64,000 bases of DNA from NCBI GenBank assembly GCA_023248495.1, contig JAHFEK010000002.1:26733-90732 (forward strand). Direction: 5' to 3'. Under the pieces are notes generated by a model. That model had not been told where the DNA came from and searched no databases. It saw only the letters and a list, made by a program, of their open reading frames with translations. This document shows, piece after piece, positions 5,725 to 62,989 of this stretch (within the stretch, counting starts at the first letter, position 1; every line of letters begins with the position of its first letter). Origin of the DNA: Nitrospinales bacterium (GTDB taxonomy: Bacteria > Nitrospinota_A > UBA7883 > JACRGQ01). The position numbers were made by a program, and so were the translations under genes.

Positions 5725-5745
5725 ACCGCGGATAACTATGGCCGC

Positions 5746-7490: not shown

Positions 7491-7571
7491 CCGCTCCGTC
7501 CTTCTTGCCCGACCCAGCTTGAAGCCCCGCCGAATTGGGAATACAATAATCACATATAGGAGTAACAAATC

Positions 7572-7982: not shown

Positions 7983-8002
7983 CGCCGGACACCGCGGCCG
8001 CG

Positions 8003-8431: not shown

Positions 8432-8451
8432 CCTGCGGGGAACAGCGCGCG

Positions 8452-42029: not shown

Positions 42030-42037
42030 GCTGTAGA

Positions 42038-42700: not shown

Positions 42701-42725
42701 TGATACCCCCCTGGCCGCGGCGGCA

Positions 42726-44156: not shown

Positions 44157-44322
44157 CCCCCGAACTCCAACAATCTCTTCCACAACGATCACCCTCTAAA
44201 TAGACCGCCATATCCGTCACCCTAGACTTTCCGGACAGGCTCTTGATATCAGCGATTTTAAATTATGCGCTCCAGCGGTTAGAGAAGCCGCATAACTTAT
44301 AACCCGTTGATTGCGCTACTAT

Positions 44323-45054: not shown

Positions 45055-45068
45055 CTATGTCCCCCTCC

Positions 45069-45731: not shown

Positions 45732-45765
45732 GTCCCCTATCCTTTCTGGTTAAAAAATCAACCTG

Positions 45766-47322
45766 TTACTTTCTATTTTTCTTAAGATACGCCGCTGCCG
45801 CCAACTGGCCGCCCGCAAGCAATACCAACACCAACAACGGAACCAAATACACTTCTTTGCCGGTAGGCGGTTGCAGCAACAGCCACGCCCAAGAGGTCAT
45901 GGTGTGCTTGGAACCCTTTTCACCGTTGGAGCCATCCCAGTTAGCGAACGCAATCGGGATAAACCGGCCCACTTCAAATTGGGTGTCCTTGTCCTTGTTG
46001 GCGGTCACAAGCTTCCGCTTCATCATAACTTTCCAGGTACCATCTTTGTACGTACCGGAAGAGGTAAAGCCGGCGGCAGCCGCATCACCCGGCGTTCGTT
46101 TGCCCGAACCCGAGTAGATCATCGTCATGCCAGCGGCCGGAGCGGTGGTCGTGCCAGAATTCCACGCCATCATGGCAACCGGATGGGCCGCATCGCCGTG
46201 GCCGAAATAAGGCTTTTCCGAACCGCTGGGAATAACAACCGGCGTCTGGATCGCAACCTGGTCGGGGGAAATTGTATCCCACGCAATCAGTTCCGCTGTC
46301 GGATCGCCTGGGATACTCTTGGTGCGGTCATCCCACTCGAGCAAGAACGCGATTTCCTTGTCGTTATACAGCGCCTTCACCTTGATGAGATCGTTTGCCG
46401 GGGTAAAGAAGCGCTCCGGCTGGATAATCTGGGGAGCCAGGAAATACGCGGTGCTTGCCGTTTCGTTCCAGACGGCGTCGTTTTCGTCCTTCGGCATTAC
46501 GTCGCGCTGAAAACCTTTCACGACGGTCTGACCGTCAACCGTTTTGCTGGTCGGCTCGGCGAGGGACATGACGTAATTGACCACGTGCCAGCGGTCTTCC
46601 ACCGACAGCTTGCCGCTAGAGGTGGTATCAGCCGCAAATGACGGCATCGGCGTGTTCGGAATGCCGTTTGACACGCGGGCGAAAATGTCTTCGGCAGTAT
46701 ACCCGCCGCGGAAAGTCCACGGTTTGGTCAGATTTCTCGGCCAGACACGGATACCGCTGTCTTCTTTGAGCTTTTTCGTCAGGTCGCCTTTGCCGACCTG
46801 GCCATGACACTCAAAGCACTTTGCGGTCTGGAACGCCTTCTTGCCCAATTCGATGCTTTCCGCCGAGCTCTTTATCTTCTTGCTCACGTCGATCTGGGGC
46901 GGATTCGCGGTTTTGCCAAACATGTCGGTAAGCGACTTGACGTAGGCAACAACGTCCCACCGATCCTGCTCGGTCAGGATGTCATTCCAGGCCGGCATAC
47001 CGGTACCCGGCATACCGTTGGTGATGACCTTAAACAGGTCCTCATCGCGCGGAATTTCTACTTTCGGGTCGCTGGATTTGTACTTGTACATACCAAGCGT
47101 AAAGTCACGCGGCGGAGGAATCAGGAAAGTGGTGGCAGGCCCGTCGGCCGCCCCTTTTTTACCATGACACCACCAGCAGCGCTTCTGGTAGATCGCTTCG
47201 CCTTTTTTTGCGTCGCCGGCGGCAAATGCCTCGGGCGCGGCGAAAATGGTGACTACGGCGAAGAGCGTAGCCATCGCCAAGCCAGTTTTTCTTACGTTCT
47301 TAAATAAAGACATGGTAGTCAT
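45766..47322 (-). CDS. diheme cytochrome c fused to an EB_dh/DOMON-like (NxrC/EbdC gamma-subunit-like) heme-binding domain
   Basis: CWWCHG and CFECHG in the N-terminal half. The C-terminal ...VKALYNDKEIAFLLEWDDRT...DQVAIQ...IAFANWDGSNGEKGSKHTMTSW fits the EB_dh pattern. C-terminal TM anchor. Confidence 0.6.
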   Translation of the reverse strand: MTTMSLFKNVRKTGLAMATLFAVVTIFAAPEAFAAGDAKKGEAIYQKRCWWCHGKKGAADGPATTFLIPPPRDFTLGMYKYKSSDPKVEIPRDEDLFKVITNGMPGTGMPAWNDILTEQDRWDVVAYVKSLTDMFGKTANPPQIDVSKKIKSSAESIELGKKAFQTAKCFECHGQVGKGDLTKKLKEDSGIRVWPRNLTKPWTFRGGYTAEDIFARVSNGIPNTPMPSFAADTTSSGKLSVEDRWHVVNYVMSLAEPTSKTVDGQTVVKGFQRDVMPKDENDAVWNETASTAYFLAPQIIQPERFFTPANDLIKVKALYNDKEIAFLLEWDDRTKSIPGDPTAELIAWDTISPDQVAIQTPVVIPSGSEKPYFGHGDAAHPVAMMAWNSGTTTAPAAGMTMIYSGSGKRTPGDAAAAGFTSSGTYKDGTWKVMMKRKLVTANKDKDTQFEVGRFIPIAFANWDGSNGEKGSKHTMTSWAWLLLQPPTGKEVYLVPLLVLVLLAGGQLAAAAYLKKNRK

Positions 47323-47329
47323 TTCTCCC

Positions 47330-48109
47330 CTATTTCTTCTCTGCGACAGTCGCGGTTACGCGCGGCTTATTCCCGCTCTGTTCGTAGATGAACATTACCG
47401 CTTTCCATGCTTCCTCCTCGGAAATCATGGTGTGCCACACCGGCATGGCGGTCGCCCACGGCGCACCTTCGCCCGGCAGACCGGGACCACCCGTGCCAAT
47501 GCGCCAGAACACGAAGGACTCGGTCAACATCGCAATGGTGCCAACGTCAACAAAGTTCGCGGGAATCGGGTTGAACGCCTGATAGAAGTGGCCCTTACCG
47601 TCCTGCTTGTCGCCATGGCAATAGAAGCAGTTCTTGTAATAGACAATTCCGCCCTCTTCCACGTTCTTGGCGAAATTCGCCTTGTCTTCGCGTAAAGGAT
47701 TCTTGAGCGTCTGTAATTCAAACGTCTTACCCCACATGTTAGCCGAGGAAGGCGGCGCCGGATGAACCGACCGCAATTCGACGGGCGCTTCAAAAGACGG
47801 CTTCACATATTGGTAAGAAACCCAGCAGCCAAGGAGACTCACAGCGGAGATGGCGCACAGGCGAAGTGTCGCCTTGGACGGATTACTGTACAGATCCACA
47901 ATCGGCCCAACAAGGCCATTGTACCCTTCATCGCTAAACGTGCTGGCCAGAAATGCGCCCGCGATGATGAAGAAGAGGTACATTTTCATAACGGCCGTCG
48001 GAACCACCGGCCATGTGCCGGGATGGGACAACGAACCCAAAAATGGAACGCCTATCTTTATGAGGAGATAGGCTACAAAAACGCCAATTATCGGTTTTAA
48101 AAAATGCAT
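47330..48109 (-). CDS. membrane-bound (3 TM) monoheme cytochrome c
   Basis: N-terminal hydrophobic helices plus CFYCHG. Confidence 0.8.
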   Translation of the reverse strand: MHFLKPIIGVFVAYLLIKIGVPFLGSLSHPGTWPVVPTAVMKMYLFFIIAGAFLASTFSDEGYNGLVGPIVDLYSNPSKATLRLCAISAVSLLGCWVSYQYVKPSFEAPVELRSVHPAPPSSANMWGKTFELQTLKNPLREDKANFAKNVEEGGIVYYKNCFYCHGDKQDGKGHFYQAFNPIPANFVDVGTIAMLTESFVFWRIGTGGPGLPGEGAPWATAMPVWHTMISEEEAWKAVMFIYEQSGNKPRVTATVAEKK

Positions 48110-48127
48110 CTTTCTACCCTCGTCTCC

Positions 48128-48994
48128 CTATTTCTTCCCAAGCAACGCGTTGACAATCAGGTTCATCTCTGACATCGTGATCTTCTCGGCAAAATCACTG
48201 GGCATCATGTCGGGCTCAAATCCCTTAACCACATACGCATTCGGAGTCGAAATCGACTCGATGATGTAAGCTTGTCCGCTCATACCGGGCTTCCTGGAAC
48301 CAGCCTCTTTGGCCAACTTTGTCAGGTTGGGTCCCATATCTCCACCTTCGGCGATACCCGGAACCACATGGCATGTAACGCAACCATACTTGTTGAAGGC
48401 CTCTTCGGCGGTTGTTGCCGGTTTGGGCGCGGCTGCGGCTTCAGCGCCACCTGCCGGTGCCGCCGGTGCAGCGCCAGTCGGGAGCGGAACAGTGACTTCC
48501 ACACCGCCCGATTTCTGCAAATAAGAAATAACGGCGTTGATCTCAACATCGGAAAGGCCGATGGCCCCCTTGTTGATCTGCGGCATCGGACTTACGGTAT
48601 CGTTCGTACCCGGTTTGCCGAAGCCAGCGACAACGTAGGTCGACGGTTCCATCATTGATTCGCGGATGTACTCTTCGCCGGTCTTTGCTTTGCCCTTGTA
48701 GCGAGGGTCTTTTATCCGCTCGGAAGACCTTGGGCCAACCGCGTCAAGAACCGGTGCGCGACCGCCGACCGGGCTGTGACAAAGTGTGCAGGTTCCCTTG
48801 CCGTGGAATATCTTATCGCCCATCGCGACAAACTGGTCTTTGGTCATCGCGCCGGTGATCTTTTCTTCAACCGGAGGCGCTTCCGGAATAACCAGCGGTA
48901 TCCCAAATTTAGCATAGCCCGCGAAGGCCAACATTATCAACAAGCCGTAAACCAGGATTTTACCCAGTTCTGAGTTACCTTTATTTCCTTCCAT
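48128..48994 (-). CDS. membrane-anchored diheme cytochrome c
   Basis: One N-terminal TM, CTLCHS and CVTCHV, with an A/P-rich linker between the domains. Confidence 0.85.
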   Translation of the reverse strand: MEGNKGNSELGKILVYGLLIMLAFAGYAKFGIPLVIPEAPPVEEKITGAMTKDQFVAMGDKIFHGKGTCTLCHSPVGGRAPVLDAVGPRSSERIKDPRYKGKAKTGEEYIRESMMEPSTYVVAGFGKPGTNDTVSPMPQINKGAIGLSDVEINAVISYLQKSGGVEVTVPLPTGAAPAAPAGGAEAAAAPKPATTAEEAFNKYGCVTCHVVPGIAEGGDMGPNLTKLAKEAGSRKPGMSGQAYIIESISTPNAYVVKGFEPDMMPSDFAEKITMSEMNLIVNALLGKK

Positions 48995-49003
48995 TTTTTC
49001 CTC

Positions 49004-50932
49004 TTAATGCTCCCCTGAAGAACCTTTTTTGGCTGCCAACATCGGCATCCAGAACATGAAAAGGACAAGGGCGATGAATACACAGACGATTACTGTAACC
49101 ACAGCCGCGGCGTAGGGCAACGTCGGCGTGAATGCGCCGGGCGAATTATCCCTGAACACCGTGTAAACGTGCCAGTGCTGGCGAATGGCCGACCGGACGT
49201 ACCCCATAAGACCCATCAACCAGGTAAAGCCGATGGTCAATGTGAAAAGGGCATACTGCGAACGAACCGGCATATTTCCCCATTTGGTTTCGCCCAGTTC
49301 TTCACTCTTATTGAAGATTTTGCCATCCATTATGAAGGAGGCAACGATAACAATGAGGGTGGTGGTAACCTGTGGAACGGAAAGACCGATACGGACGCTG
49401 GCTGGCAGATAGTAACTGTAAATACCAAGCGCCAGAATGTTGCACAAACCGGCAACGTAAAGACCAATCTGGACGGAAGTGCCGTTTTGGGCCCAAAATC
49501 CGTCACCGAGCGCCTTCTTATTGCTGCGGTTGTAAATCTGGAAGCTGAGGAACGTTAGCACGATAAGGAAGTTAACCGCCGTGTTCTTCGCGGCCATAAC
49601 CCCAAGTTTACCGAGCAACGGATGGTGAGCGCCGCCGATCTGGGTCAGTTCCGTCGAGCTCATAACCAGCGTGTGCGGGGTAAGCCATGCGAGGAACATC
49701 GTCACGATAACAATAGCGATCGGCTTGATCATAAAGCTGTACCGGTGCGAACCGTTCGAACGCGCCAAGCAGCACCAGAGGTAGTAGTTGGCGGAAAGGA
49801 ATATCGCGCCGATAAGCACCGCCTGAAGAATGAACAACCACGCGAAGGCGCCGCCCATGAGGGTGATGCCCATCTGCTGCGAATAGTCGTAAATTTCCTT
49901 GGTGAGCCAGTAACCGGCGAACGGCAACGGAAGAAGACCGATGATCGCGATGAAGAACGAGGTGTACCCCATCCAGTCATAGTGGGCCTTTTCCTGCGGC
50001 GTTTTCGCCATGAGGAACTTGTATCCCGCATACGCCGCGGTCAGCGAACCGCCATAGGCGATGTTCGCGACAAAGCGGTGGATGTTGATCGGGTTCCAAA
50101 GGTGTCCGTTGATGGCCGCCCAGACATTACCCTGGAATACGCCAGAATCATCCAATCCCGAAGGGGCCATCATGAACGATGCCCACGAGTTGGAAACCAT
50201 CATAAGGAACACGCCGGCCAAGTTTAGGCCCAAGCCCAAACCGATGTGGACGATCTTGGAGTTCCCATCGGACATCTTGTCCCACCCGTAGTAGTAGGTG
50301 TACAAAAAGAAGCTTTCCGCGAAAAACGCGAGAGCGTAAAAAATCATCACCTTGCCGAAAATACCCGTCATGTAAGTCATAAATTGGGGATAGAAAACAA
50401 CCAAAGCGATGGAAAGGAGACCTCCGAAGCTCGCGGCAAGCGAGAACCCGGTCATGGCCACCTTCATGAACTCGTGCGCCATATCATCATACCGCTTGTC
50501 CTTGGTGACAACGCCGGTGATCTCGATGAGCCACACGAAGATCGGAACCGCGAGAACGAACGCACCAAAGAAAAGGTGCAACTGGGCGATGAACCAGACG
50601 GTTAAGCGGCTGTTAAAGCCTTTGACGACCGGGTAGTCTTTCTCTTCCAGTTTCGGAGGCGGTTGAGGAGCCCATTCCGCGGGACCCTTCTTCTCCTCTT
50701 TTTTAGCTTCAGCCGCAGGGGCTGCCGCCGGGGCCGCTTCGTTAGCCCAGGCTTTTTGGGCCAAGACCGCATTGGCGGCGGACTTCAGCACCGGCTGGCT
50801 GATGTCCATATAATCGAACGAAAGCGCCGGGATTGCAAGCAGCAGGGCCAAGGCCGCGCCAAACCTGTAAACCCCAGTGCTACATTGAGATAACACTTTC
50901 TTGACATGTGAAAACATAAACCTAACCTTCAT
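49004..50932 (-). CDS. cytochrome bd subunit I (CydA)-like 'bd-like' oxidase membrane subunit
   Basis: Segments align by eye to E. coli CydA. QLHLFFGAFVLAVPIF...IEITG matches MYHFLFVPLTLG...METVY. FFAESFFLYTYYYGWDK...LNLAGVFLMMVSNSWASFMMAP matches FFLESTFVGLFFFGWDR...SNLSALWILVANGWMQNP. RSAIRQHWHVY matches EYGRQPWAI. Extra C-terminal TMs are present. The preferred start is ATG 50932 (AGGGGA upstream); the ORF track extends to 51055. Confidence 0.8.
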   Translation of the reverse strand: MKVRFMFSHVKKVLSQCSTGVYRFGAALALLLAIPALSFDYMDISQPVLKSAANAVLAQKAWANEAAPAAAPAAEAKKEEKKGPAEWAPQPPPKLEEKDYPVVKGFNSRLTVWFIAQLHLFFGAFVLAVPIFVWLIEITGVVTKDKRYDDMAHEFMKVAMTGFSLAASFGGLLSIALVVFYPQFMTYMTGIFGKVMIFYALAFFAESFFLYTYYYGWDKMSDGNSKIVHIGLGLGLNLAGVFLMMVSNSWASFMMAPSGLDDSGVFQGNVWAAINGHLWNPINIHRFVANIAYGGSLTAAYAGYKFLMAKTPQEKAHYDWMGYTSFFIAIIGLLPLPFAGYWLTKEIYDYSQQMGITLMGGAFAWLFILQAVLIGAIFLSANYYLWCCLARSNGSHRYSFMIKPIAIVIVTMFLAWLTPHTLVMSSTELTQIGGAHHPLLGKLGVMAAKNTAVNFLIVLTFLSFQIYNRSNKKALGDGFWAQNGTSVQIGLYVAGLCNILALGIYSYYLPASVRIGLSVPQVTTTLIVIVASFIMDGKIFNKSEELGETKWGNMPVRSQYALFTLTIGFTWLMGLMGYVRSAIRQHWHVYTVFRDNSPGAFTPTLPYAAAVVTVIVCVFIALVLFMFWMPMLAAKKGSSGEH

Positions 50933-51519
50933 TTTGTCCCCTAAGCCGTTAATATTCTTATTCCCCTTTAGGAAAGAGCGCCAAGCCCTGATAAGCCTGC
51001 AGAAAATAATCCACTGAAAAGAAAATAACCGCAAAAACCGCAAAGGCAGCAACAAACGTAAAAATCTTTTGGTTCAAACCATCCCCCTTTTTCAAGTTAG
51101 TACCAACTAGGTTGTTAAGAGCGCTTTCCCAATCAAAAAAACGCCGTTAAATAAATACTCTGCTAATTATTCGAAGTGTGCAAGCTGGGTTAAATCGAAA
51201 GCAACCTCCCACTTTTTCCTAACCATCCACAGCAATACTTTTGACATTCCCCCCCGGGAATGCCCCCACCTTGTTTGTGCAACACCGCTTTTGCAATTTA
51301 AAACGTGCCTTACTAAATACAAGAGCCATGCCGCAATTCGTGCAATATTAGCATAAGACCACCAAAAGCCAAGAAATATTTTCATCACTATAAAAATATT
51401 CGGCCAATGGGCGGTTTTACCCGGAAAGGTTAGTGGTTTCATGGGGCCAGCTTCCTAAATAACATGGCGAAAAAGCTTTGAAAAACCGAACCGCCTGTAC
51501 ACCACGTTAACATTGGTTG

Positions 51520-53514: not shown

Positions 53515-56394
53515 TTACGTAAGCTTGCCTAGCGCTTCAAGTATGGCCTTCCGCTCGCTTTCCGACGGATCAAGCGTTAGCGCATAATTATAATACTCTT
53601 TTGATTTGATTTCATTTTTTAACACAAAACCATAGAGCCCCGCAAGGTTTACCGCGGCCATCAAATATTGGGGATCCAGTTTAAGGGCCTCGAGGAATTC
53701 CCGTTCGGCTTCGTAGCTGCTTCCCAGGTTGGCGAAAAACATCCCCTTGAGAAAATGGGTCTGCATCCTGAAAAGCCCGCCGGTATCCATCCGCTCGGTA
53801 TCCATAAGCAATTGCATTCCCATTTCCGGCTGGTTTTTGGATAACGCGGCATACAGGGTGGCGATGTTAAGGGAAAGATGGGCGTAGCGGGCATCGGCGT
53901 TGTCGGAATTCATTTCAAGCGCGAGGCTAAAGTGCTTGGCCGCCGAGCCGATACGTCCGTCACTGAGTTCTATTTGGCCCCGCAGAAATTCCTCTTCGGA
54001 CCGGAAATAATTTTGGAATGTCTTTTCCTGGTCCGCCGATGCGAACACGGCTTTTGGCGGCACGCGGAATTTAAGGAGATTTTCAAGATTGCGCCCCTTG
54101 AGGGCGACGCCCGCCTCGTGTATGCGGGGCGCGGAAAACTCGATGTATGGACGGTCGTCGGTAACCGGCGTGACGCCCGCCGCGAACCGCCGTATCTGCC
54201 CCGCGTCCATCATGAAATTCGAAAGGAGTTGATGGACGTTCATAATACCGATCCCCTTCAGGCTTTCGGCGACCGCGCTTTTCGCCATCCCCTCCTGGAG
54301 CTTGGCGACATCCATGGGCATATCTCCATCCGCACCCACCATGATGGCATCCCATTTCGTGTACCACATCTGCGCGTTGGGAAAAACATCGATGAACGTA
54401 GCGACTAGCGCGCGGAAATCCTCCTCCGAGAGATGGTGCAACGGTATCCACTGCGAAACAATCCCCTTGTCGGCAAGCCTTTTTTTACACAGAAGATAAT
54501 ATTCCCTCGTATAAAGACTCACAATGCCGGCGTTGGAGGGAGGCGGAGGTTCGGAGGTTATCAGATCGTATTTTTCCCGCGTCGTCAGCAGGAAATTCCG
54601 CCCGTCTTCCTCCACCATGGAAAAAGAAGGGTTTTTCGCCACGTTAAAATTGGCCTCGGCGAACTTGTCCGCCGCGCCAAATACTTCGCGGGAGATATCG
54701 ACGGCGATGACCCGGTCAAGGCCGTGCGCGGCGGCGGTACCGGCGGTGCTGCCGGTTCCAAAACATACAACAAGCGCCTTCTTCGGCGAAGGATGCATCA
54801 GCAGCGGTATGTGGGCCTGCAGCCGTTCCAGCTGCAACGCCTCGCGGAACGCCCCGGCTATGGGATCGCCATTTATCCATATCCGGCTGACCGGTTTGCG
54901 GTTCGCCGAGAGATCGGAATCCACATACGATACCAACACGGTCGCGGAAGGCCCTTCCCGGTAATATTTCACCCGGCTGCCGGCTTCCAGCTTTTGAGCG
55001 CTCAGTGCAAAAGCGGGATCGCCAGCGGCAACAACACCGAAGGTTAACGCCAGCAAGCAAGCCGTCACGAAAACAACGCGCGAGCGCTCCTTCTTGTCCG
55101 AGGATTTGCCCTGAAGATAGCCACCGGCGATGATGGCCATCCACGACACCGCCACGATACCGAACCGTATCCCCATAAACGGAATAAGCAGGTACCCGGC
55201 GGCAAGTGAACCCAACACGCACCCGGCGATATTCATGGCGTAAAACCTGCCCACGGTGCCCCCCGTTTTTTCAGGCGTCGAAGAAATGGCCCCTAAGATA
55301 AGCGGAAAGCCGCCCCCCATCAGAAACGTGCAGGGAAATACTATTATCATGGAGAAAATGACCGCTTCAGCCATCGGATTGCCGCCCGGTATCACGGAAG
55401 CAAGAAAACCGCCGCCGGACGCCGCCACGCCCATCAGCTCGCGGTTGAAAAGAAGCCCCGCCAGCGAGACCAGCGCGAAGAGTCCGATGCCCATCTGAAA
55501 TCCGCCAAACAGAAACGCGCCGTTGCGCGGCGCCTTTTTCATCATACGGGCCGTTAACGCGCTCCCGGTGCCAATACCTAAAAGAAAAATCGCCAAAATC
55601 AGGGAAAATGCATAGGTCGTGTTGTTCAAAAGCAGGATGAACATTCTTGTCCAAAGGACTTCAAGGGCCATTGCGCAAAAGCCGGCAACGCCGAAAAGAA
55701 ACAGGATGGACCGGCGCGATACCATGAAGTCCTCCGCCGCCGGGGCCGCTTTCGCTTCTCCGGCGGAAACGGATACCCAGCCGGCCTCCGCCGCCAGCAG
55801 GAATGCTCCGATGCCGCATACCATGTTCATCGCCGCCCCAACCCTAAGGGTACCCGACAGACCGATATGCTCGATAAGCCAAAAACCCGCAAGAACACAT
55901 CCAACCACCGCGCCCAGCGTATTAACCGCATACAGGATACCCACGGATTTGCCGATACCCGGCTCGCGATGCGCAAGGTGGCGGCTTAACGCGGGAAGTG
56001 TGCCCCCCATCAATGCGGTCGGGATCAAAAGCGCCGATATCGCCAGAACAAAACGCAATACCATGACGTATAGAAGGTTTCCCCCGGCGCCCGGATGTAA
56101 TTGCACGTAGGCCTTTTCGAGGTGCTGAAGAATAAAGGGAAATAGAACCATATACACCGCAATGGCTAACTCAAGGGCGGCATAAAGCCGTATCGGCGCC
56201 GCGCCACGATCCAGTTTTTTCCCAAAGTATATCGCGCCGAAGCCAAGCCCTCCCATAAACGCGACCAAAACCGCGCTCACCGCGTAAATGCTTACGCCCA
56301 GCAAAAGGGTCAGCTCCCGCACCCAGACAATCTCGTAGATAAGACCGGCGGCGCCTGAAATGAAGAAAAGAATGAAAAGGAGAGCCCTTTTCAC
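53515..56394 (-). CDS. fused polytopic membrane domain / spermidine-synthase-like methyltransferase-fold domain / C-terminal TPR
   Basis: 959 aa. About 12-14 TM (MFS-like) come first. Then ...KKALVVCFGTGSTAG...VIAVDIS...YDLITSEPPPP (SpeE-like SAM-fold motifs), then TPR repeats. Confidence 0.7.
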   Translation of the reverse strand: MKRALLFILFFISGAAGLIYEIVWVRELTLLLGVSIYAVSAVLVAFMGGLGFGAIYFGKKLDRGAAPIRLYAALELAIAVYMVLFPFILQHLEKAYVQLHPGAGGNLLYVMVLRFVLAISALLIPTALMGGTLPALSRHLAHREPGIGKSVGILYAVNTLGAVVGCVLAGFWLIEHIGLSGTLRVGAAMNMVCGIGAFLLAAEAGWVSVSAGEAKAAPAAEDFMVSRRSILFLFGVAGFCAMALEVLWTRMFILLLNNTTYAFSLILAIFLLGIGTGSALTARMMKKAPRNGAFLFGGFQMGIGLFALVSLAGLLFNRELMGVAASGGGFLASVIPGGNPMAEAVIFSMIIVFPCTFLMGGGFPLILGAISSTPEKTGGTVGRFYAMNIAGCVLGSLAAGYLLIPFMGIRFGIVAVSWMAIIAGGYLQGKSSDKKERSRVVFVTACLLALTFGVVAAGDPAFALSAQKLEAGSRVKYYREGPSATVLVSYVDSDLSANRKPVSRIWINGDPIAGAFREALQLERLQAHIPLLMHPSPKKALVVCFGTGSTAGTAAAHGLDRVIAVDISREVFGAADKFAEANFNVAKNPSFSMVEEDGRNFLLTTREKYDLITSEPPPPSNAGIVSLYTREYYLLCKKRLADKGIVSQWIPLHHLSEEDFRALVATFIDVFPNAQMWYTKWDAIMVGADGDMPMDVAKLQEGMAKSAVAESLKGIGIMNVHQLLSNFMMDAGQIRRFAAGVTPVTDDRPYIEFSAPRIHEAGVALKGRNLENLLKFRVPPKAVFASADQEKTFQNYFRSEEEFLRGQIELSDGRIGSAAKHFSLALEMNSDNADARYAHLSLNIATLYAALSKNQPEMGMQLLMDTERMDTGGLFRMQTHFLKGMFFANLGSSYEAEREFLEALKLDPQYLMAAVNLAGLYGFVLKNEIKSKEYYNYALTLDPSESERKAILEALGKLT

Positions 56395-57497
56395 CTGAAT
56401 ATCTTCTCAGTGGTCTTTATTTTAACCCGCATCTTTTTTGATTCGTCAAGCAACGCTGCGGTGTCCAGCATGCCCAGCTTCCCGGTACCGGACTCGGTGA
56501 ACCAGACGCGCCCCTTAGTATCGATCGCCAGTGAATTTGGCTTCGATTCCCCTTCGGAAAGATCGAACATTTGCATCGTGGCGGTTTTTGTGTTGAAACG
56601 GAGCAAGCGGTTATCGGTATGTTGAACCATCCAAAGGTTATCCGACTGGTCCATCGCTATTTCACTGGTTCCCTTGTTTTTCGGCATATCGAAAGTCTCT
56701 TGCTTCGCGGTTTTAGGATCGAAACGCACAATCATGTTATCGACCATTTGAAGATACCAAATCATCCCCTTGGAATCGAACACCGTGCCGAGAGGAGACT
56801 TCATGGCGGGCGATATGCCCCATTCGCGAAACCTCTTCTTTTCGGGATCAAACATGGCGATCTTGTTGCCGCTGCGTTCGACAAACCACATATTACCCGA
56901 GCGATCCTCCGTCAAATCAAAACTGCTGCTGTTCGGGGTCGGGATAATGAACTTTTCGAATTTTTCGGTGCCGGGCCGGAAACGGATCAGCATGTCATTG
57001 TTCCAACCTAGCACCCAAATATCGCCGGTGCGCGCGGCATAAACGATGATCGGATCGACATTCTTGAAAGGAATAACGTATTCCTTGAATGTTTTTGTTT
57101 TTGGATCGAACTTGGATAACACGTTAACGTCCTGCTCAACCAACCATAGAATGCCGTTCTTGTCCGCGGTCATATCCATGGCGTGGCTTTTACCCGAGAG
57201 AATGGGATATTCCTTCATCACGCCGGATTTAGAATCAAAACTTACCAGCGCGTTGGCATTGAACTCGATAAACCAGACGGTGGCGTCCCCTGTGGTGGTA
57301 ACAGCGGTGGGATAGCTCTCCTTCTGCGGAATGTCGTACTCCGTTATCAACTCGCCGCCACGAGCCGCCGGAACAATGGCAACCGATACCATCAGGGCCA
57401 ACACGGTTGCCCTGAAGGAAGTCCCGCTAAAAAAACCGGCAATCCGTGAAAGAGGCCCACCTTGAAAAGCGCGGTTGGGAAATGTCGAAAACAACAT
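56391..57497 (-). CDS. secreted 7-bladed beta-propeller, Vgb (virginiamycin B lyase)/lactonase-like repeats
   Basis: Seven repeats of the form D..G.(I/L/M)W(F/L/V).E...N.(L/I)..FDP.T..F.E(Y/F).(I/L)P. No Cys-rich or heme motifs. Confidence 0.65.
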   Translation of the reverse strand: MLFSTFPNRAFQGGPLSRIAGFFSGTSFRATVLALMVSVAIVPAARGGELITEYDIPQKESYPTAVTTTGDATVWFIEFNANALVSFDSKSGVMKEYPILSGKSHAMDMTADKNGILWLVEQDVNVLSKFDPKTKTFKEYVIPFKNVDPIIVYAARTGDIWVLGWNNDMLIRFRPGTEKFEKFIIPTPNSSSFDLTEDRSGNMWFVERSGNKIAMFDPEKKRFREWGISPAMKSPLGTVFDSKGMIWYLQMVDNMIVRFDPKTAKQETFDMPKNKGTSEIAMDQSDNLWMVQHTDNRLLRFNTKTATMQMFDLSEGESKPNSLAIDTKGRVWFTESGTGKLGMLDTAALLDESKKMRVKIKTTEKIFR

Positions 57498-57517: not shown

Positions 57518-58750
57518 TTAGTGGGAGTGGCCGCTTGGCGCTTCATGAACATGGGGCATCGCTTTGCCTTTGGGCACCGATGAACGGATTAGCATCGATA
57601 TCTGATTAGCGCCCCTGTCGCTTTCGGTAAACCACACGTCCCCTTTCGAATCGACGGACAGGCTCATCGGTTGCGCGCCCATCGAGGGAAGGTCGAAGGA
57701 GGCGAAACTTACGGACTTCTGGTCAAAATAACCGATAGCGTTCATCATGCTGTCAATGTACCAAATATACCCGTCTTTAGCCGCGGTTATGGCCTGGGGA
57801 GCGGTATTGTAGCCCGGGGGATCGGTCAGCCCAAACATTCCTTTGTCGGTATAAAGAACGCCGATCTGCTTGGAGCGCAATAAGCAAAACCACAGCATCC
57901 CTTCTTTGCCGAACTGCATCTTCCCCGGCTGCGACTTCACGGCGGGAATCGGGAATTTCTTATACTTTTTGGTTTCCGGCTCATACCTGCCGATATAGTT
58001 CTCGCTAACCTCGCTGAGCCATACAACGCCCGCCGTATCCACCGCTATCCCCATTAACTGGCTTCCGGCCGGAAGCGGAATTTCCGCTATGGTCTTCTTA
58101 GCCACGTCAAGGACGCCGAATTTCGACCCGTTTTTTTCCACAAACCATATCCGCCCGCGCGGATCTTCAGCCAAATCATACGGCTGGGCATTTTTGGTCG
58201 GCATGAGGAACTCGGTCATTTCCTCGGTGACCGGATCGAACCGGACGACGCTGTTGCCCAGATGCATCACAAACCAAACGATATCGTTTTTTCCAACAAT
58301 TACGTTGCCGGGACTGCCGACACTGTACACGTTAAAGGCTTTGTCCGGCGATGTCCGGTTTTTCGAATCGTATTTCCAGTCTGATTCCGGCAATCCTTCG
58401 GTGGAGGGAATCCGGTATTCCTTGAATTCCCCTTTCGAGGGATCTAACCTCACCAAGGAATTGGCGCTCATCAAGGTGCACCATATGTTGTCTTTTGAAT
58501 CAACCGCGATGCCGTAAGGTGTGGCATAACGGGCAGGCACCGGATACTGAACGATGCGCACATCGCCCTTAACCTCTTTCGGCGCGACGATGGTAACTTT
58601 TGGCTTTACTTTTACGCCTAAACCCGTTGGCGCGCCCGCAGCGTCACCAACCGAGACAAAGGCCAGTACCAACACCAGCCCCGCTACAGTCAAGATTGAT
58701 CGAGGTGTAAACGTCCGCCGGGAAATGCTACCAGGTGAACGTAGGTTCAT
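57518..58750 (-). CDS. Tat-targeted 7-bladed Vgb/lactonase-like beta-propeller with His-rich C-terminal tail
   Basis: N-terminus ...GSISRRTFTPRSILTVAGLVLVLAF (S-R-R-x-F twin-arginine motif). Same repeat family as 56391-57497. The C-terminus ends ...AMPHVHEAPSGHSH. Confidence 0.65.
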   Translation of the reverse strand: MNLRSPGSISRRTFTPRSILTVAGLVLVLAFVSVGDAAGAPTGLGVKVKPKVTIVAPKEVKGDVRIVQYPVPARYATPYGIAVDSKDNIWCTLMSANSLVRLDPSKGEFKEYRIPSTEGLPESDWKYDSKNRTSPDKAFNVYSVGSPGNVIVGKNDIVWFVMHLGNSVVRFDPVTEEMTEFLMPTKNAQPYDLAEDPRGRIWFVEKNGSKFGVLDVAKKTIAEIPLPAGSQLMGIAVDTAGVVWLSEVSENYIGRYEPETKKYKKFPIPAVKSQPGKMQFGKEGMLWFCLLRSKQIGVLYTDKGMFGLTDPPGYNTAPQAITAAKDGYIWYIDSMMNAIGYFDQKSVSFASFDLPSMGAQPMSLSVDSKGDVWFTESDRGANQISMLIRSSVPKGKAMPHVHEAPSGHSH

Positions 58751-59441
58751 ACATATGCCTCATCTGCCAATTTGCATCCTTGTAGCCCTGTACTTCGCTT
58801 TGGCCGGAATTCCCGCCTGATCCGGCTTCGGCCTCTATTTTTCCGGCCCGATACTTGCCAACCCCGATTTGCAACGCGCGTTCCGTCGCATAATACTTCG
58901 CGACATTCGCGGGAGGAATGGCCATTCTTGGCCCCATCGAGGCGTTGTGGCACGAATCGCAACCAAGGATTTTTGCCTGATGACCGCTCCTATAAACCCC
59001 GACAAGTATGACAAAAGCGAATATCAACGCCGGCAATGCATAGATGACGCTTCTTGCAAGCCCCTGCATCCCCCGCGCTTTTTCAATGATGTTTTTAAGC
59101 CCCGGGATGCGGTCAAACGGCACCCTATGCATCGACGGCAGGAAAATAAAAAACACCAACGTTACAATCGGAATGACCGGCATTAGAACAAGATATTTTT
59201 TTAAGCTGCCGCCAAAATACCAAAATCCCTGCCAAAAAAGCAGAAATATCCATTCAGGCCCGGGAATGTTCTCACCTTCGTCCGGCATCGGGACTTGGTC
59301 AGGGGCCAAAAACGGCACGGGATATTTGATCGACAAAAATACCATAACCGCCACCAAAGCGGTCATAAGGATCGAAAGGATCAAAAGGTACGTGGGCCAC
59401 CAGAATAATCCTTTTTTCTTAGCGATGTTTGTAATGCTCAT
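58728..59441 (-). CDS. cytochrome b C-terminal part (subunit IV/PetD-like) fused to a monoheme c domain
   Basis: The Qo-site motif PEWY appears as GPEWIFLLFW. Three TM, then CDSCHN. ATG 59441 is preceded by GGGGGAG 7 nt upstream. Confidence 0.75.
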   Translation of the reverse strand: MSITNIAKKKGLFWWPTYLLILSILMTALVAVMVFLSIKYPVPFLAPDQVPMPDEGENIPGPEWIFLLFWQGFWYFGGSLKKYLVLMPVIPIVTLVFFIFLPSMHRVPFDRIPGLKNIIEKARGMQGLARSVIYALPALIFAFVILVGVYRSGHQAKILGCDSCHNASMGPRMAIPPANVAKYYATERALQIGVGKYRAGKIEAEAGSGGNSGQSEVQGYKDANWQMRHMYEPTFTW

Positions 59442-59466
59442 GGCTGGACTCCCCCTATTTGCCGAA

Positions 59467-60099
59467 TCATACTTTTTTGGCCAATCCAAGCCGTCTCGTC
59501 AAAATGATATGAACGAAAAGAACGGCGAAAAACAGTATCGGCAACATTATGATATGCACCGCGAAATTGCGACCAAGCGTGAATGAACTCAAAATGAGAT
59601 CTTTAACCGATCCGCCAACAAGCGGAATCAACTCAAGCCAGTCGGCCCAGATAATCAGTTCCCAATAACTTCTCCAGTCCCACGGCGCGATAATGCCGGA
59701 GATCAGAAAAAGAAAGAAAATCAGCCCCAAGACAAGCCCGGTGAACCAATTTAATTCGCGCGGATTTTTATACGCTTTCCTTCCCATGGTGTGAAACACA
59801 TGCAACATGACAAAAAGAGCGCCAAACGTAGCACTCCACCGGTGAAGGCTTCGCATGATGGCTCCCAGATTCGACAACTGACACATATCCCGAATGCTCT
59901 GGTGCGCAAGATTCGGTTCCGGAACATAGTACATGACCATGTAAAAGCCGGTTAAAAACTGAATACCGACACAGCCGATAGTCAGGCCGCTGAAGAAGTG
60001 CCATATGGTGGCGCTTTCAGAAAGCTCAAATGCAATATGATTGTTATAAAATTGAACAATCCCAAGGCGCTCGTCAATCCATCCAATAATTTTTTTCAT
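59467..60099 (-). CDS. cytochrome b6-type N-terminal subunit (PetB-like)
   Basis: Four TM. The bis-His pairs are LHRWSATFGALFVMLH (H-x13-H) and VHIIMLPILFFAVLFVH (H-x14-H, b6-type spacing). Confidence 0.85.
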   Translation of the reverse strand: MKKIIGWIDERLGIVQFYNNHIAFELSESATIWHFFSGLTIGCVGIQFLTGFYMVMYYVPEPNLAHQSIRDMCQLSNLGAIMRSLHRWSATFGALFVMLHVFHTMGRKAYKNPRELNWFTGLVLGLIFFLFLISGIIAPWDWRSYWELIIWADWLELIPLVGGSVKDLILSSFTLGRNFAVHIIMLPILFFAVLFVHIILTRRLGLAKKV

Positions 60100-60107: not shown

Positions 60108-60608
60108 TTATTTAGTTGCCAGTTCCGTGCCATTTGCGTCTTGTGGAGCCTTGATGAACGCTGTCTCATCAATTGTCTCCGCATTGAAATCTATCTGCCA
60201 TTCATTGCTTGTCTTATCAAGGATGAGATTCAATTGGCTTGTCGTCTTGAAACTGTCCTCAAATTTTGACGGAGCGGATACTTCCAGTTTTACCACCGCG
60301 ACCCAGTCGCCATTTTTGTTTGGCTCTTTCGGAAGAAGCGACTGAAGCACTTTTATCTTTGCTTGGGATGTCCCGTAATTTTCCGTCCATTTTCTGAATG
60401 AATCGATATTCATGACGCCATATTTTGTCGATACCATTTTATATGCTTCCTGGTTCGCGAGGCGTCCGCCATCAGCCAGCAGCTTGAAAAATCGGCTGGC
60501 GACTTCCTCGGGCTTGGCATCAGGAAACTTCGCCTGAGCTTTTGTGCAAGCGGAAAATACGCCGAATGCGAGAAATAAACAGATAAAAGCTCTCATGACA
60601 CGCTTCAT
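60108..60608 (-). CDS. lipoprotein of unknown function (NTF2/SnoaL-like fold guessed)
   Basis: Lipobox-like GVFSAC. No Rieske (CxH..CxxH) or Met-rich Cu motifs. Confidence 0.5.
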   Translation of the reverse strand: MKRVMRAFICLFLAFGVFSACTKAQAKFPDAKPEEVASRFFKLLADGGRLANQEAYKMVSTKYGVMNIDSFRKWTENYGTSQAKIKVLQSLLPKEPNKNGDWVAVVKLEVSAPSKFEDSFKTTSQLNLILDKTSNEWQIDFNAETIDETAFIKAPQDANGTELATK

Positions 60609-60677: not shown

Positions 60678-60711
60678 CAAAAATAAAGGGGCCGGTTTTT
60701 CAACCGGCCCC
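60678..60711 (-). terminator. rho-independent terminator/attenuator after the NosZ-like gene
   Basis: Reverse strand reads GGGGCCGGTT-gaaa-AACCGGCCCC followed by TTTATTTTTG, 41 nt after the stop at 60752. Confidence 0.75.
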
Positions 60712-60751
60712 TCTTTGTACCGCCAATCAGGCAGAAGGAAAAACCAACCAG

Positions 60752-62554
60752 TTAGATAACCGGTTCGCTGCCTTCATTCAACTTGTTCATCAGCTTGTTG
60801 GTGCCGACGATGAATTGGCGCTCGCCTGGAGCCAACATGGTATCCTGTTTGGACATTTCGTCGTAATCGCCGACGCCCATGGAGGCCTTGCCGCCTGGGG
60901 GATCAACGAAGAACGTGCCGCGCATTTCAAGGTGCAGCGGTCCACAGAACTGCTGGCAGTAGTATTCGAATTCGCCAGCCTTATCAGCAACGAATTCGTC
61001 AACAGCGGACATACCGCGAACGGCGAATATCATCGTTCGCGGACCGTAATAGCCAGCGGCCGTGAAGCCCATGGTGACGTCCGGGTTCTTTGTAAGACCG
61101 GCCGCCTTGTCTATATTGGTATAGATAATGCGAACTTTCGCGCCCTTGGGGACGTGGATGAAGCGGGGCACGTAGCCGTAGGAGAATCCTTTGACTCTCA
61201 CAACGTATACGTCACCTTCCTTCGTCACGCCGGGTTTGCCGTCGTCACGGGGAATCCAGGTGCGGACGCTGTCAGCCGTATGTGTCGGCTCGAGCTGCGA
61301 ATGCACGTTCGCGGGGAGACCGGGCCGACCCGTCGCGCCAAAGCTGACGTGGTAGTCGCCGAGGTCATAGCCCTTTTCGAACAGATCTTCACCTTTGCCG
61401 GTATTCCATCTCTGGATGTACGTGGCAAATATCTGGCGCCCTTCGTGCGGCTCGCCGTCAACCGGCGCCAACTTAACGGATTTACCGTAGGTCGGGCTGG
61501 TTTCGTCGATATCCTGTTCCTCGAAGTTAACGGCAAAGATGATGCCGGTCGGGGTAAACAGGCCGGTGGAGAACTTGTTCTGGGACATATAGTAAGCATC
61601 GTCCGGGGCGATCGAGTTGTGACCGCAGCGGTAGTGGATCGGGAATTCGTCAACCAACTGCATGCGCATCACGTCGGTCTTCGAAGTGGAGTCCGACACG
61701 AAGCAGGAGTTGTAGACGTATTTACCGAGCGAGTCAAACTGGTTGTGCAGGGGACCGGCGCCTACCGGGATAACCTTGCGCACGCGCAGTTGATCCACGT
61801 CGATGATGGAAATCGTGGCGGAAAGCTTGTCGCAGACGGAAACCATGCGGCCCGTGGGGCTGACGTTGGTGCCGTGCGGGTTTTTGCCGACCGGGATTTC
61901 CTTGATCAGCTTGAACGGATCCTGGCTGAACACCATGACCGCCGAGTGATAGTAGTTACCCGAGAAGACGTATCTGCCGTCTTTGCTGGTATCCGGATAG
62001 TCCGGTGCGCTGGGGGCCGGCGGTATATCAAGAACCGTCGTCGCGCCATCGGAAAGCCGCAGTTTCAGCATTTTGCCGGTGAGTTCGCCCGTGGCAAACA
62101 GGTATTTGCCGTTCGGGGAGAGCGCCGCGCTGTGGTGAATGCCGAACGGTTTCGGCAAAGCGAAAATCCGCTCCACCCAGCCGGTCTGCAAGTTCACTTC
62201 ATCAATCGTGTCCGAGCCCTTGTCGGAAACATACAGGTACTTGCCATCGGGCGTACCGTTGTTGTTACCCGCGTTGGAGCCGGAGAACGGGAAATTGTGC
62301 ATGTCGGTACCGCACTTGATGTGGCGGTACGTCTTCATGGAAGGAATACCGATGACGCCGATCGCGCCGTCAGTGCCGCCTGCATCATACAGGATGGCGT
62401 AGTCGCGCAACGGATAGTCGCTATCCTGGGGCGCGATGACGTGCCAGTCACGCGCATCTTTATCCGTAAGGATAACTTTTTTTGCTTCCGCGGGCAGGTT
62501 AAGAGCAACCAGCGCGACGGAAAGAGTCAATAAAGAAAATAGCTTTTTTTTCAA
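60752..62554 (-). CDS. nosZ: divergent nitrous-oxide-reductase (NosZ)-like protein: Sec signal + compact beta-propeller + CuA cupredoxin
   Basis: NosZ signature strings occur in the canonical order: IHH, VGAGPLHNQFD, HYRCGH, DGEPHE, YTNID....DVTMGF and FVADKAGEFEYYCQQFCGPLHLEM. The last contains the CuA C-x3-C-x3-H-x2-M motif, nt 60923-60958. Confidence 0.75.
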   Translation of the reverse strand: MKKKLFSLLTLSVALVALNLPAEAKKVILTDKDARDWHVIAPQDSDYPLRDYAILYDAGGTDGAIGVIGIPSMKTYRHIKCGTDMHNFPFSGSNAGNNNGTPDGKYLYVSDKGSDTIDEVNLQTGWVERIFALPKPFGIHHSAALSPNGKYLFATGELTGKMLKLRLSDGATTVLDIPPAPSAPDYPDTSKDGRYVFSGNYYHSAVMVFSQDPFKLIKEIPVGKNPHGTNVSPTGRMVSVCDKLSATISIIDVDQLRVRKVIPVGAGPLHNQFDSLGKYVYNSCFVSDSTSKTDVMRMQLVDEFPIHYRCGHNSIAPDDAYYMSQNKFSTGLFTPTGIIFAVNFEEQDIDETSPTYGKSVKLAPVDGEPHEGRQIFATYIQRWNTGKGEDLFEKGYDLGDYHVSFGATGRPGLPANVHSQLEPTHTADSVRTWIPRDDGKPGVTKEGDVYVVRVKGFSYGYVPRFIHVPKGAKVRIIYTNIDKAAGLTKNPDVTMGFTAAGYYGPRTMIFAVRGMSAVDEFVADKAGEFEYYCQQFCGPLHLEMRGTFFVDPPGGKASMGVGDYDEMSKQDTMLAPGERQFIVGTNKLMNKLNEGSEPVI

Positions 62555-62572: not shown

Positions 62573-62989
62573 TTATTTTTCGTGCTTGTAATAAACGCCG
62601 GCCTTGGCGTCTGCGTCAAGCCGTTTAATCAAGTAGCTGTTGGCATCAAGAATGACGATCCTTCTGGCCACGTAGTCGTTGCCGGTCAGATTCCATCCGT
62701 ACACCGCGACGAGATCGCCAGCCTTCAACTCGGTAAACTTTTTGAAGACGCCCCTGTCGCCGGTCATCACGTATGCATCGGGATGCAACTTCATCGTGTA
62801 CTTCTTGCTATCCTTTTCAAATTTGGTAGCAATCGTAAGCTCACGATTTCCCAATTTCTCTATCGTGCCAATCTGCAAATTGTCTTTGTTGGTGGAACCG
62901 TTGCCCATTTCGGCAACCGCGTTCTGGGCCATAAAGACCATCGAGACCAGAGCAAACACGAAAGCAAAACCCATTGACTTTATTTTCAT
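62573..62989 (-). CDS. small secreted protein of unknown function, first gene of the NosZ-like unit
   Basis: Signal peptide MKIKSMGFAFVFALVSMVFMAQNAVA. 18 nt upstream of the NosZ-like gene. No motif recognised. Confidence 0.55.
   Translation of the reverse strand: MKIKSMGFAFVFALVSMVFMAQNAVAEMGNGSTNKDNLQIGTIEKLGNRELTIATKFEKDSKKYTMKLHPDAYVMTGDRGVFKKFTELKAGDLVAVYGWNLTGNDYVARRIVILDANSYLIKRLDADAKAGVYYKHEK

Follow-up and report, generated by a model that had tools for sequence, protein, structure and literature searches.

The L-nosZ gene and its product

The L-nosZ gene lies on the reverse strand of a 64,000-nt stretch of the Nitrospinales contig JAHFEK010000002.1, the whole of which is called the window below. 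It encodes a lactonase-type (clade III) homologue of NosZ, the nitrous oxide (N2O) reductase, and belongs to a sub-clade in which methionine stands at the position of the first histidine of the copper site CuA (Met-type, as distinct from the His-type sequences that keep the histidine). The features of the gene and its product are as follows, with (-) denoting the reverse strand.

60752..62554, (-): L-nosZ, lactonase-type (clade III) NosZ homologue of the Met-type CuA sub-clade; a 600-aa open reading frame (ORF), supported by NF052460, PDB and Foldseek matches and by the ratio of nonsynonymous to synonymous substitution rates (dN/dS)
62483..62554, (-): Sec-type signal peptide, residues 1-24, with an AEA/KK cleavage junction, by sequence inspection
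61427..62407, (-): seven-bladed beta-propeller, approximately residues 50-376, from the DSSP blade pattern of the AlphaFold2 model
62297-62299, (-): proposed CuZ ligand H86, by alignment to canonical ligands
62132-62137, (-): proposed CuZ ligands H140 and H141, by alignment, H141 by the clade III arrangement
61946..61948, (-): His203 codon, candidate compensating residue, invariant in the Met-type clade
61874-61876, (-): proposed CuZ ligand H227, by alignment to canonical ligands
61745-61747, (-): proposed CuZ ligand H270, by alignment to canonical ligands
61619-61621, (-): proposed CuZ ligand H312, by alignment to canonical ligands
61445-61447, (-): proposed CuZ ligand H370, by alignment to canonical ligands
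60887..61234, (-): C-terminal cupredoxin (CuA) domain, residues 441-556, aligning with the CuA domains of NosZ and of subunit II of cytochrome c oxidase (COX2); Pfam Cupredoxin_1 matches the homologues
61070..61072, (-): Met495 codon (ATG), at the position of the first CuA histidine (P. stutzeri H583), by phmmer, profile search, hhalign and L-INS-i
60923..60958, (-): CuA loop C533-Q-Q535-F-C537-G-P-L-H541-L-E-M544, by alignment
60685..60714, (-): intrinsic-terminator-like hairpin directly 3' of L-nosZ, with a 13-bp stem, 8 G-C pairs and a T-run

The ORF starts with TTG and has a GGAGG Shine-Dalgarno sequence about 9 nt upstream. The N-terminus of the product, MKKKLFSLLTLSVALVALNLPAEA, contains no twin-arginine motif, and this motif is lacking in 113 of 115 homologues as well. 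Hence a 600-aa ORF with a Sec signal devoid of twin arginines, as claimed in the preliminary description of this DNA, is borne out by the ORF call and inspection of the N-terminus. Codon-by-codon checking verified M495 (ATG), C533, Q535, C537, H541 and M544, as well as the histidines H140/H141, H203, H227, H270, H312, H370 and H425. The gene is under strong purifying selection, with dN/dS of 0.07-0.09 relative to four relatives.

Conservation was assessed in three samples: 84 homologues encoded in a set of 85 loci, 80 of them from GTDB species representatives; the 115 nearest full-length homologues; and 192 lactonase-type sequences, the last set being biased by the choice of queries.

Assignment to clade III

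The best NCBIfam match of the window protein is NF052460, with 591.4 bits (E = 1e-177) over 479 of 480 profile positions; the curated equivalog cut-off of this model is 700 bits. The canonical models, TIGR04244 for clade I and TIGR04246 for clade II, yield 113 and 157 bits, respectively, both below their cut-off of 625 bits. The NF052460 scores differ by group, being 566-609 for the Nitrospinota type, 696-733 for the Desulfobacterota, 770-804 for the Gallionellales and Hyphomicrobiales, and 914 for the Desulfitobacterium type. Compared with the latter, the window protein scores 591 vs 914 bits, at 42.8% identity. The Pfam matches are Lactonase, YNCE and nos_propeller.

In sequence searches of the PDB, NosZ ranked ahead of all else (E = 8e-23 for a single-sequence query and 2e-39 for a profile), and hhalign against five clade I/II NosZ from plasmids gave a probability of 100 and E = 1e-72. 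The AlphaFold2 model, built with 68 homologues, has a predicted local distance difference test (pLDDT) score of 84.3 and a predicted template modelling (pTM) score of 0.85, and features seven times four strands followed by a cupredoxin. The top 50 Foldseek matches of this model in the PDB are all NosZ, with E of about 2e-30. The TM-score for the monomer model is 0.48 at a root-mean-square deviation of 17 Å; the low value is attributed to domain placement that would differ between the monomer model and the domain-swapped crystal dimers.

The identity of the window protein is 42.8% to the L-NosZ of D. nosdiversum and 26-29% to clades I/II. The nearest relatives come from metagenome-assembled genomes (MAGs) of the Nitrospinota/Nitrospinales, at 68-95% identity, the closest, at 95%, being from a groundwater Nitrospinales MAG. 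In a neighbour-joining tree, which is distance-based, has no bootstrap values and is rooted on the five clade I/II sequences, the protein falls inside a monophyletic Met-type clade, nested among the lactonase-type lineages and apart from clades I/II.

Judged by these sequence comparisons, the ORF is a genuine clade III (lactonase-type) NosZ homologue, a member of an already known family. The preliminary description had seen a compact, Sec-exported NosZ homologue outside clades I/II and had named profile hidden Markov model (HMM) searches and tree placement as checks; the HMM scores, the tree and the fold agree with that, NF052460 being the best match. It had also mentioned NosZ-like lineages outside clades I/II, without assigning the ORF to one. 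The lineage is not an undescribed one: the family is the clade III L-NosZ, named by He et al. (2025, Nature 646:152), whose title reports N2O reduction for it, and modelled as NF052460. The Nitrospinota are cited among clade III hosts in follow-up surveys.

The overall architecture, a Sec signal, a compact seven-bladed propeller and a C-terminal cupredoxin, is shared with the clade III enzymes of D. nosdiversum Sab5 (P0DXY7) and S. acidovorans Mol (P0DXY8). The hosts differ, the window coming from a Gram-negative member of the Nitrospinota and the characterised clade III hosts being Bacillota. The propeller-plus-cupredoxin fold is also that of canonical NosZ of clade I (exported by twin-arginine translocation, Tat; P. 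stutzeri structures 3SBP and 6RL0) and clade II (Sec; TIGR04246), with Sec export as in clade II and no RR motif.

Proteins of the Nitrospinota type are named 'beta-propeller fold lactonase family protein' because they fall below the 700-bit NCBI cut-off. In a 2024 comparative study of the Nitrospinota, norBC and nosZ were given as absent from all genomes analysed (PMC10839748). The L-nosZ cluster occurs in at least 25 GTDB species representatives labelled Nitrospinota, and evidently standard annotation missed the Nitrospinota L-nosZ.

Histidines of the propeller

The canonical CuZ ligands of P. stutzeri NosZ are H129, H130, H178, H326, H382, H433 and H494 (PMC8179356). In the alignment, H140 of the window protein corresponds to H178, H227 to H326, H270 to H382, H312 to H433 and H370 to H494, and the conserved K327 aligns with K454. 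Thus five CuZ histidines, K454 and, in the cupredoxin, the C-x3-C-x3-H-x2-M loop of canonical NosZ align residue for residue. H86, in the motif G-x-D84-x-H86, aligns with H129, and N87 sits at the H130 position. H141 has no canonical partner, the corresponding residue being Gly or Ser.

The blade assignment is characteristic: in all lactonase-type NosZ the His-His pair belongs to blade 2 and blade 1 contributes one histidine, whereas in clades I/II the arrangement is reversed, with the pair in blade 1. The order of clade III motifs, DxH in blade 1, HH in blade 2, then KNPH, GPLH, HYxxGH and EPH, is fully retained in the window protein, and the same arrangement (DxH; HH; KNPH; GPLH; HYRxGH; EPH), with the same seven histidines, is found in both characterised enzymes, P0DXY7 and P0DXY8. 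All seven (H86, H140, H141, H227, H270, H312, H370) and K327 are invariant in the 84 locus-encoded homologues. Hence these seven likely form the CuZ ligand set. H425, situated in the linker, has no canonical partner, and is kept in 110 of the 115 nearest homologues.

Several of these points had been anticipated. The GPLH, HYxxGH and EPH motifs were recognised from the sequence and indeed align with H382, H433 and H494, respectively, and the propeller is shorter, as had been noted: 130 residues separate H140 and H270 compared with 204 between H178 and H382, the span being about 75 residues shorter than in canonical NosZ. The 'IHH' motif, taken for the canonical HH doublet, was off by one blade: since residues 139-141 align with the canonical 'AIHG' of blade 2, it represents the H178 site with one extra histidine and not H129/H130. 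Likewise, seven candidate CuZ histidines do exist, but the list proposed at that stage included H425 and H203, which have no canonical counterparts, and missed H86.

The first CuA ligand

CuA centres, both in NosZ and in subunit II of cytochrome c oxidase, comprise two bridging Cys, two terminal His, a Met and a backbone carbonyl; in the window protein, Met495 takes the place of one terminal histidine. All alignments place it at the position of P. stutzeri H583, as the preliminary description had it. The other observations made there on this domain were equally sound: the TNID…xGF and CxxFCxxxHxEM motifs align as stated, and Q535 occupies the column of the canonical W620, a Trp-to-Gln change. 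This column contains H, Q or T among homologues, and Gln535 is confined to a part of the Nitrospinota-type clade (20 of 45 sequences), with His or Thr elsewhere. The residues C533, C537, H541 and M544 are invariant both in the 115 nearest homologues and in all 84 locus-encoded ones, and in the homologue alignment of the cupredoxin domain no histidine other than H541 is invariant.

Methionine occupies column 495 in all 115 nearest full-length homologues, which suggested that it might be a feature of the whole family. This is ruled out by the His-type lactonase NosZ. When the cupredoxin domain alone was searched against 1.84 billion cluster representatives, lactonase-type relatives that keep the histidine came to light. 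P0132, one of these relatives, has an NF052460 score of 914 bits, and its 90% cluster includes the D. nosdiversum Sab5 enzyme (P0DXY7); the sister cluster holds that of S. acidovorans (P0DXY8). D. nosdiversum Sab5 and S. acidovorans Mol are tabulated as clade III N2O reducers in PMC13274427. The observation of Met has thus become weightier after the identification of the family, because the clade III enzymes tabulated as N2O reducers retain His.

Pairwise phmmer alignments of 150 distant CuA domains were too noisy at the first-ligand column to reveal any Met outside L-NosZ. In the L-INS-i alignment, the segment containing this ligand reads PAPMHGF and PAPVHGF in D. nosdiversum and S. acidovorans and PDVTMGF in the window protein, while representatives of the Thermodesulfobacteriota and Gallionellales read PDV[T/Q]MG[F/L], like the latter. 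The FCGPLHLEM loop and a 6-residue insertion before the first CuA ligand are common to the window protein and the two characterised enzymes, so the differences at the site are Met for His (PDVTMGF for PAP[M/V]HGF) and, in the propeller, His203 for Lys/Arg.

Among the 192 lactonase-type sequences, column 495 is occupied by Met 170 times, by His 21 times and by Pro once. Met is also present in all 84 locus-encoded homologues, including all 80 GTDB species representatives, and the five clade I/II comparators all have His. In the neighbour-joining tree, the His-type lineages branch first, and a single clade of 171 tips, one of them a degenerate derivative, unites the Met-type sequences. Hence Met appears to be a derived state of single origin. 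The hosts of the Met-type clade are the Nitrospinota, Nitrospirota, Desulfobacterota, Gallionellales, Zetaproteobacteria, Magnetococcales and other Proteobacteria.

In P. stutzeri, H583 adopts two conformations, Cu-bound and Ser550-bound, and was proposed to serve as an electron-transfer gate (PMC8179356). As Met replaces the flipping histidine, this gate cannot work here in the same form. The P. stutzeri H583 variants (PDB 7AQ2-7AQ9; Zhang, Bill, Kroneck and Einsle 2021, JACS 143:830) carry substitutions to A, D, E, N, F, Y and W at the position of Met495; among the P. stutzeri NosZ entries in the Foldseek matches listed, there is no H583M variant. In contrast to these laboratory-made variants, the methionine at this position is natural and fixed by selection in the whole clade.

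One may ask whether L-nosZ is simply a decaying or non-catalytic paralogue encoding a pseudo-enzyme, given that degenerate relatives exist: P0129 has NN in place of HH and lacks the CuA cysteines, and ligands have been lost in P0128, P0133 and P0135. In the window protein, however, none of these ligands is lost: the seven histidines, both cysteines, and H541 and M544 of the CuA loop are in place. All 84 homologues, with conserved synteny, show this pattern too, dN/dS is low, and the gene is equipped with its own terminator and a strong ribosome-binding site. The conservation data effectively refute this explanation, and we regard it as highly improbable.

His203

Another residue distinguishes the Met-type clade. 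His203 is present in all 170 Met-type sequences and all 84 locus-encoded homologues, whereas the His-type L-NosZ have K/R and clades I/II have S/T/N/D at this position. In the AlphaFold2 model it lies in blade 3, between strands 195-200 and 205-211. The alignment by hhalign puts it at the stump of the canonical loop N257-D273, the order of which correlates with CuA occupancy (PMC8179356).

These observations bear on the possibility that Met495 is not a functional replacement of the histidine, and that another histidine, the best candidate being His203, possibly from the partner subunit, completes the CuA1 site or the gate. This would be a sub-hypothesis of the N2O reductase explanation considered below rather than an alternative function. 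It is consistent with the clade-specific invariance of His203, with its location in the loop joining strands two and three of blade 3 in the model, a location which, by general propeller topology, would be on the CuZ-ligand face that receives the CuA domain of the partner, and with the hhalign position. On the other hand, the MAFFT L-INS-i position is about 20 residues away from the hhalign one, methionine itself is a suitable ligand of Cu(I)/Cu(II) and does not vary at this position, and the co-occurrence of His203 and Met495 amounts to a single phylogenetic event. The Met-type clade being monophyletic, the two residues occurring together give a lead rather than independent evidence. We consider such a role of His203 rather unlikely.

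Genes adjacent to L-nosZ

L-nosZ is a part of a gene cluster with the following features.

62573..62989, (-): small secreted protein of the NOV5WD8W family, upstream of L-nosZ; NF052405 199 bits vs cut-off 170
60108..60608, (-): probable lipoprotein, 166 aa, directly downstream of Met-type L-nosZ; 51 of 85 loci
59467..60099, (-): cytochrome b6-like di-haem subunit, 210 aa; PF00033 2e-29, cytochrome b6 model 3.7e-41; 50 of 85 loci
58728..59489, (-): membrane protein, 253 aa, with a subunit-IV-like N-terminus and a mono-haem c C-terminus; 44 homologues, weak cytochrome c-552 match
57518..58750, (-): Vgb-lyase-family beta-propeller, 410 aa, with a His-rich C-terminal tail; PF24684 1.3e-48; 54 of 85 loci
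56391..57497, (-): second Vgb-lyase-family beta-propeller, 368 aa; PF24684 8.2e-40; 54 of 85 loci
53515..56394, (-): MFS-like/spermidine-synthase-like/TPR fusion, 959 aa; 24 loci, same arrangement in L001 and L002
53042..53506, (-): secreted TPR protein, 154 aa, at the end of the Nitrospinota-type cluster; 13 loci
52999-52977, (-): terminator-like hairpin 3' of the 154-aa TPR gene, from a hairpin scan

The Nitrospinota-type gene order is NOV5WD8W, L-nosZ with its terminator, the 166-aa lipoprotein, the cytochrome b6-like protein, the 253-aa protein, two Vgb-lyase-family propellers, the MFS/spermidine-synthase/TPR fusion and the small TPR protein. About 50 of the 85 loci, in the Desulfobacterota, Alpha- and Gammaproteobacteria and Magnetococcales, contain the core of the cluster, which extends from the lipoprotein to the second propeller. 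The 959-aa fusion belongs to the cluster only at loci of the Nitrospinota type.

The cytochrome b6-like protein has four conserved histidines, H86, H100, H182 and H197, and hence is consistent with two b haems. The 253-aa gene overlaps the end of the cytochrome b gene, and its product has the conserved P78-E79-W80, similar to the PEWY of the Qo site, and C177xxC180H181. We read this pair as a putative QcrB/QcrC-like quinol:cytochrome c module. The 166-aa lipoprotein was considered as a candidate Rieske subunit and rejected, as it has no conserved Cys or His; it has no Pfam or NCBIfam match, and among its Cys, His, Met and Trp residues just W137 is conserved.

Genes of the known accessory set were sought with NCBIfam and/or Pfam among 59 non-overlapping ORFs of at least 80 aa in the window, and no match to nosD, F, Y, L, R or X was observed, unlike canonical nosZ, which has these genes nearby. 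This agrees with the reported clade III neighbourhoods, which have no nosDFYL/nosR and have cytochrome genes next door (PMC13477213). The His-type L-nosZ loci also have no nosDFYL/nosR, and a cytochrome b gene is situated directly downstream of L-nosZ there, as it is, after the lipoprotein gene, in the window. In one His-type locus, L092 (positions 1278-3139), from a MAG labelled Desulfovibrio sp., a complete set of Rieske, cytochrome b and cytochrome b_C-cytochrome c genes directly precedes L-nosZ, and a second cytochrome b pair follows it. Hence a Rieske protein is sometimes associated with L-nosZ, unlike the situation in the window.

The stop codon of the NOV5WD8W gene is only 18 nt before the L-nosZ start, so these two genes are probably co-transcribed. 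A scan for sigma-54 promoters upstream of them produced no match, and the count in the entire window was below the chance expectation. The NOV5WD8W gene is found only beside L-nosZ of the Nitrospinota type, in 30 of the 85 loci. The window protein is a full-length member of this FESNov family. Rodriguez del Rio et al. (2023, Nature; PMC10849945) described the family as adjoining a 'NosZ' gene and proposed that it is a CusF-like chaperone replacing NosL. The sequence does not support a CusF-like Cu(I) chaperone, as metal-binding residues are not conserved: in the alignment of 30 homologues the conserved motifs are GNGS, FEK, FKKF-ELK-GDL and DAKAG-YYKHE, and no Cys, His, Met or Trp is conserved at the level of at least 90%. 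PDB sequence searches with this protein gave no match.

The 410-aa Vgb-like protein and its close relatives (in L006, L007, L048 and L030) end in a His-rich tail, …MPHVHEAPSGHSH, which may be metal-binding, whereas most homologues end in a transmembrane helix instead.

Proposed function

Taken together, these data make it probable that the Met-type L-NosZ reduces N2O in the periplasm, has a CuA site with the ligand set Met/Cys2/His/Met, and receives its electrons from a module of cytochrome b and subunit IV-cytochrome c that lacks a Rieske protein. The Sec-exported, copper-dependent enzyme would, by homology, be a head-to-tail dimer. N2O would be reduced at the CuZ cluster in the hub of the propeller, coordinated by H86, H140, H141, H227, H270, H312 and H370, and electrons would enter via a binuclear CuA with the predicted ligands Met495, Cys533, Cys537, His541, Met544 and the backbone carbonyl of residue 535. 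Their most likely source is the quinol pool, via the downstream cytochrome b6-like and subunit-IV-like/cytochrome c module. Insertion of copper and sulfide should depend on a system other than NosDFYL/NosR, because the latter are absent from the window; the candidates for maturation roles are the lipoprotein, two Vgb-lyase-like propellers and the NOV5WD8W protein.

Several facts weigh against this explanation. The protein misses the equivalog cut-off of NF052460 (591.4 vs 700 bits). The confidence of hhalign is low at the column of H86. One canonical terminal histidine of CuA is replaced, and both organisms tabulated as clade III N2O reducers carry His-type enzymes; no report of activity of a Met-type member was found in the literature searched, in which He et al. 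2025 was represented by the papers citing it. No Rieske subunit is encoded in the cluster, and thus the route of quinol oxidation is unclear. Finally, the helper genes differ: those in the window are the lipoprotein, the subunit IV-cytochrome c fusion, two Vgb-like propellers, NOV5WD8W and the MFS/SpdSyn/TPR fusion, whereas the His-type loci have a MacB/FtsX ABC transporter, a BNR/sortilin propeller and a YtkA/FixH-like protein.

An alternative is that the Met-type clade is a diverged copper enzyme that has kept the CuZ/CuA scaffold in a different role or with a different substrate, and hence would not be an N2O sink; it could, for example, act on another small oxidant, or operate in another redox window tied to the bd-like/cytochrome c module described below. 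The sub-threshold score and the characterisation of His-type enzymes only, mentioned above, would fit such a divergence, as would the monophyly and long separation of the clade with its own accessory set, several clade-specific invariant residues, His203 among them, and the 20 loci that adjoin the bd-like oxidase/cytochrome c block. However, all residues of the N2O site are invariant (the seven histidines, the K454-equivalent Lys, two Cys, His and Met), the CuZ-type cluster has no other known substrate, the cytochrome b partner is common to the characterised type, and follow-up surveys count lineages of the Nitrospinota, Desulfobacterota and Nitrospirota as clade III nosZ. We therefore find a different role improbable and prefer the N2O reductase assignment.

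Within this assignment, a narrower proposal may be put forward tentatively, as it is possible though doubtful in its entirety: the Met-type clade may be a distinct, uncharacterised N2O reductase subclass with a gateless Met/Cys2/His/Met CuA, perhaps completed or regulated by His203, and with a different helper set. If this is the case, the redox potential, the behaviour with respect to pH and O2, and competence as an N2O sink are not transferable from the two Bacillota enzymes. A naturally fixed replacement of His by Met at a terminal CuA ligand is unusual, and it offers a direct test of the gating model of P. stutzeri.

The distinction matters since metagenomic surveys now count clade III nosZ among the N2O sinks. 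For instance, in a survey of lake-sediment microcosms clade III accounted for 10-40% of nosZ and was assigned to the Nitrospirota, Nitrospinota, Pseudomonadota and Myxococcota, which are the phyla of the Met-type clade. The activity data found in the literature searched come only from the two Bacillota, in which the CuA histidine is retained. Should the Met-type enzymes behave differently, the estimates of sinks from gene counts would need revision.

Other genes in the window and degenerate relatives

A further group of genes may be associated with L-nosZ.

44671..51055, (-): possibly associated five-gene module, by synteny, encoding a bd-subunit-I-like protein (683 aa), c-type cytochromes (288, 259 and 127 aa) and a cytochrome c/EB_dh haem-b protein (518 aa)

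This bd-like block is about 10 kb from L-nosZ in the window and 2-9 kb from it in 20 of the 85 loci, from the Gallionellales, Zetaproteobacteria, Magnetococcales, Sedimenticola and Casimicrobiaceae (among them L003, L037, L043, L050, L051, L053, L058, L060, L063, L067, L069, L072, L075, L077, L078, L080, L081 and L083). The identity of the block to the window copy is 56-60%, exceeding that of L-NosZ in the same loci (50-55%). The block may provide an alternative quinol:cytochrome c route to L-NosZ.

A gene at 51669-52340 (+), located between the bd-like block and the L-nosZ cluster, encodes a fusion of an ArsR/SmtB-type metalloregulator with rhodanese (223 aa); it is kept at the same place in L006 (89% identity) and L014.

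The region 39129-44192 (-) encodes a 966-aa fusion of a URO-D/MtaA-like methyltransferase and a RACo-type corrinoid activase, a 220-aa corrinoid-binding protein and a 488-aa sigma-54 response regulator. The same components occur in L091, directly upstream of L-nosZ of the Desulfitobacterium type (3837-9768, in the order B12-binding, URO-D, Fer2-RACo, GAF histidine kinase, sigma-54 regulator, L-nosZ), and in L001 (19869-21800, to the end of the locus), where a sigma-54 regulator and a corrinoid-binding protein are 10 kb from a Nitrospinota L-nosZ. That is, corrinoid/RACo/sigma-54 components are found near L-nosZ in three loci from two lineages only. N2O oxidises cob(I)alamin, and this module could be a corrinoid-based N2O sensor.

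The degenerate lactonase-type NosZ relatives are P0129 (Nitrospinota, 1139 aa), P0128 (Dehalococcoidia), P0133, P0135/P0282 and P0290. Their CuZ histidines (with NN, ND or NS in place of HH), their CuA cysteines or both have been lost, and they probably are non-catalytic paralogues. P0129 nests inside the Met-type clade and has a C-terminal extension of about 600 aa.

Finally, the segment at about 8450-34630 (-) is occupied by a large lipid biosynthesis cluster of the flexirubin/aryl-polyene type. It contains an ammonia-lyase, several KS genes, FlxY-like and FlxB-like genes, LolA2, an HAE3 RND transporter and B12-radical-SAM enzymes, one of which matches TIGR04072 ('lipid biosynthesis B12-binding/radical SAM protein') with 566 bits vs the cut-off of 360.

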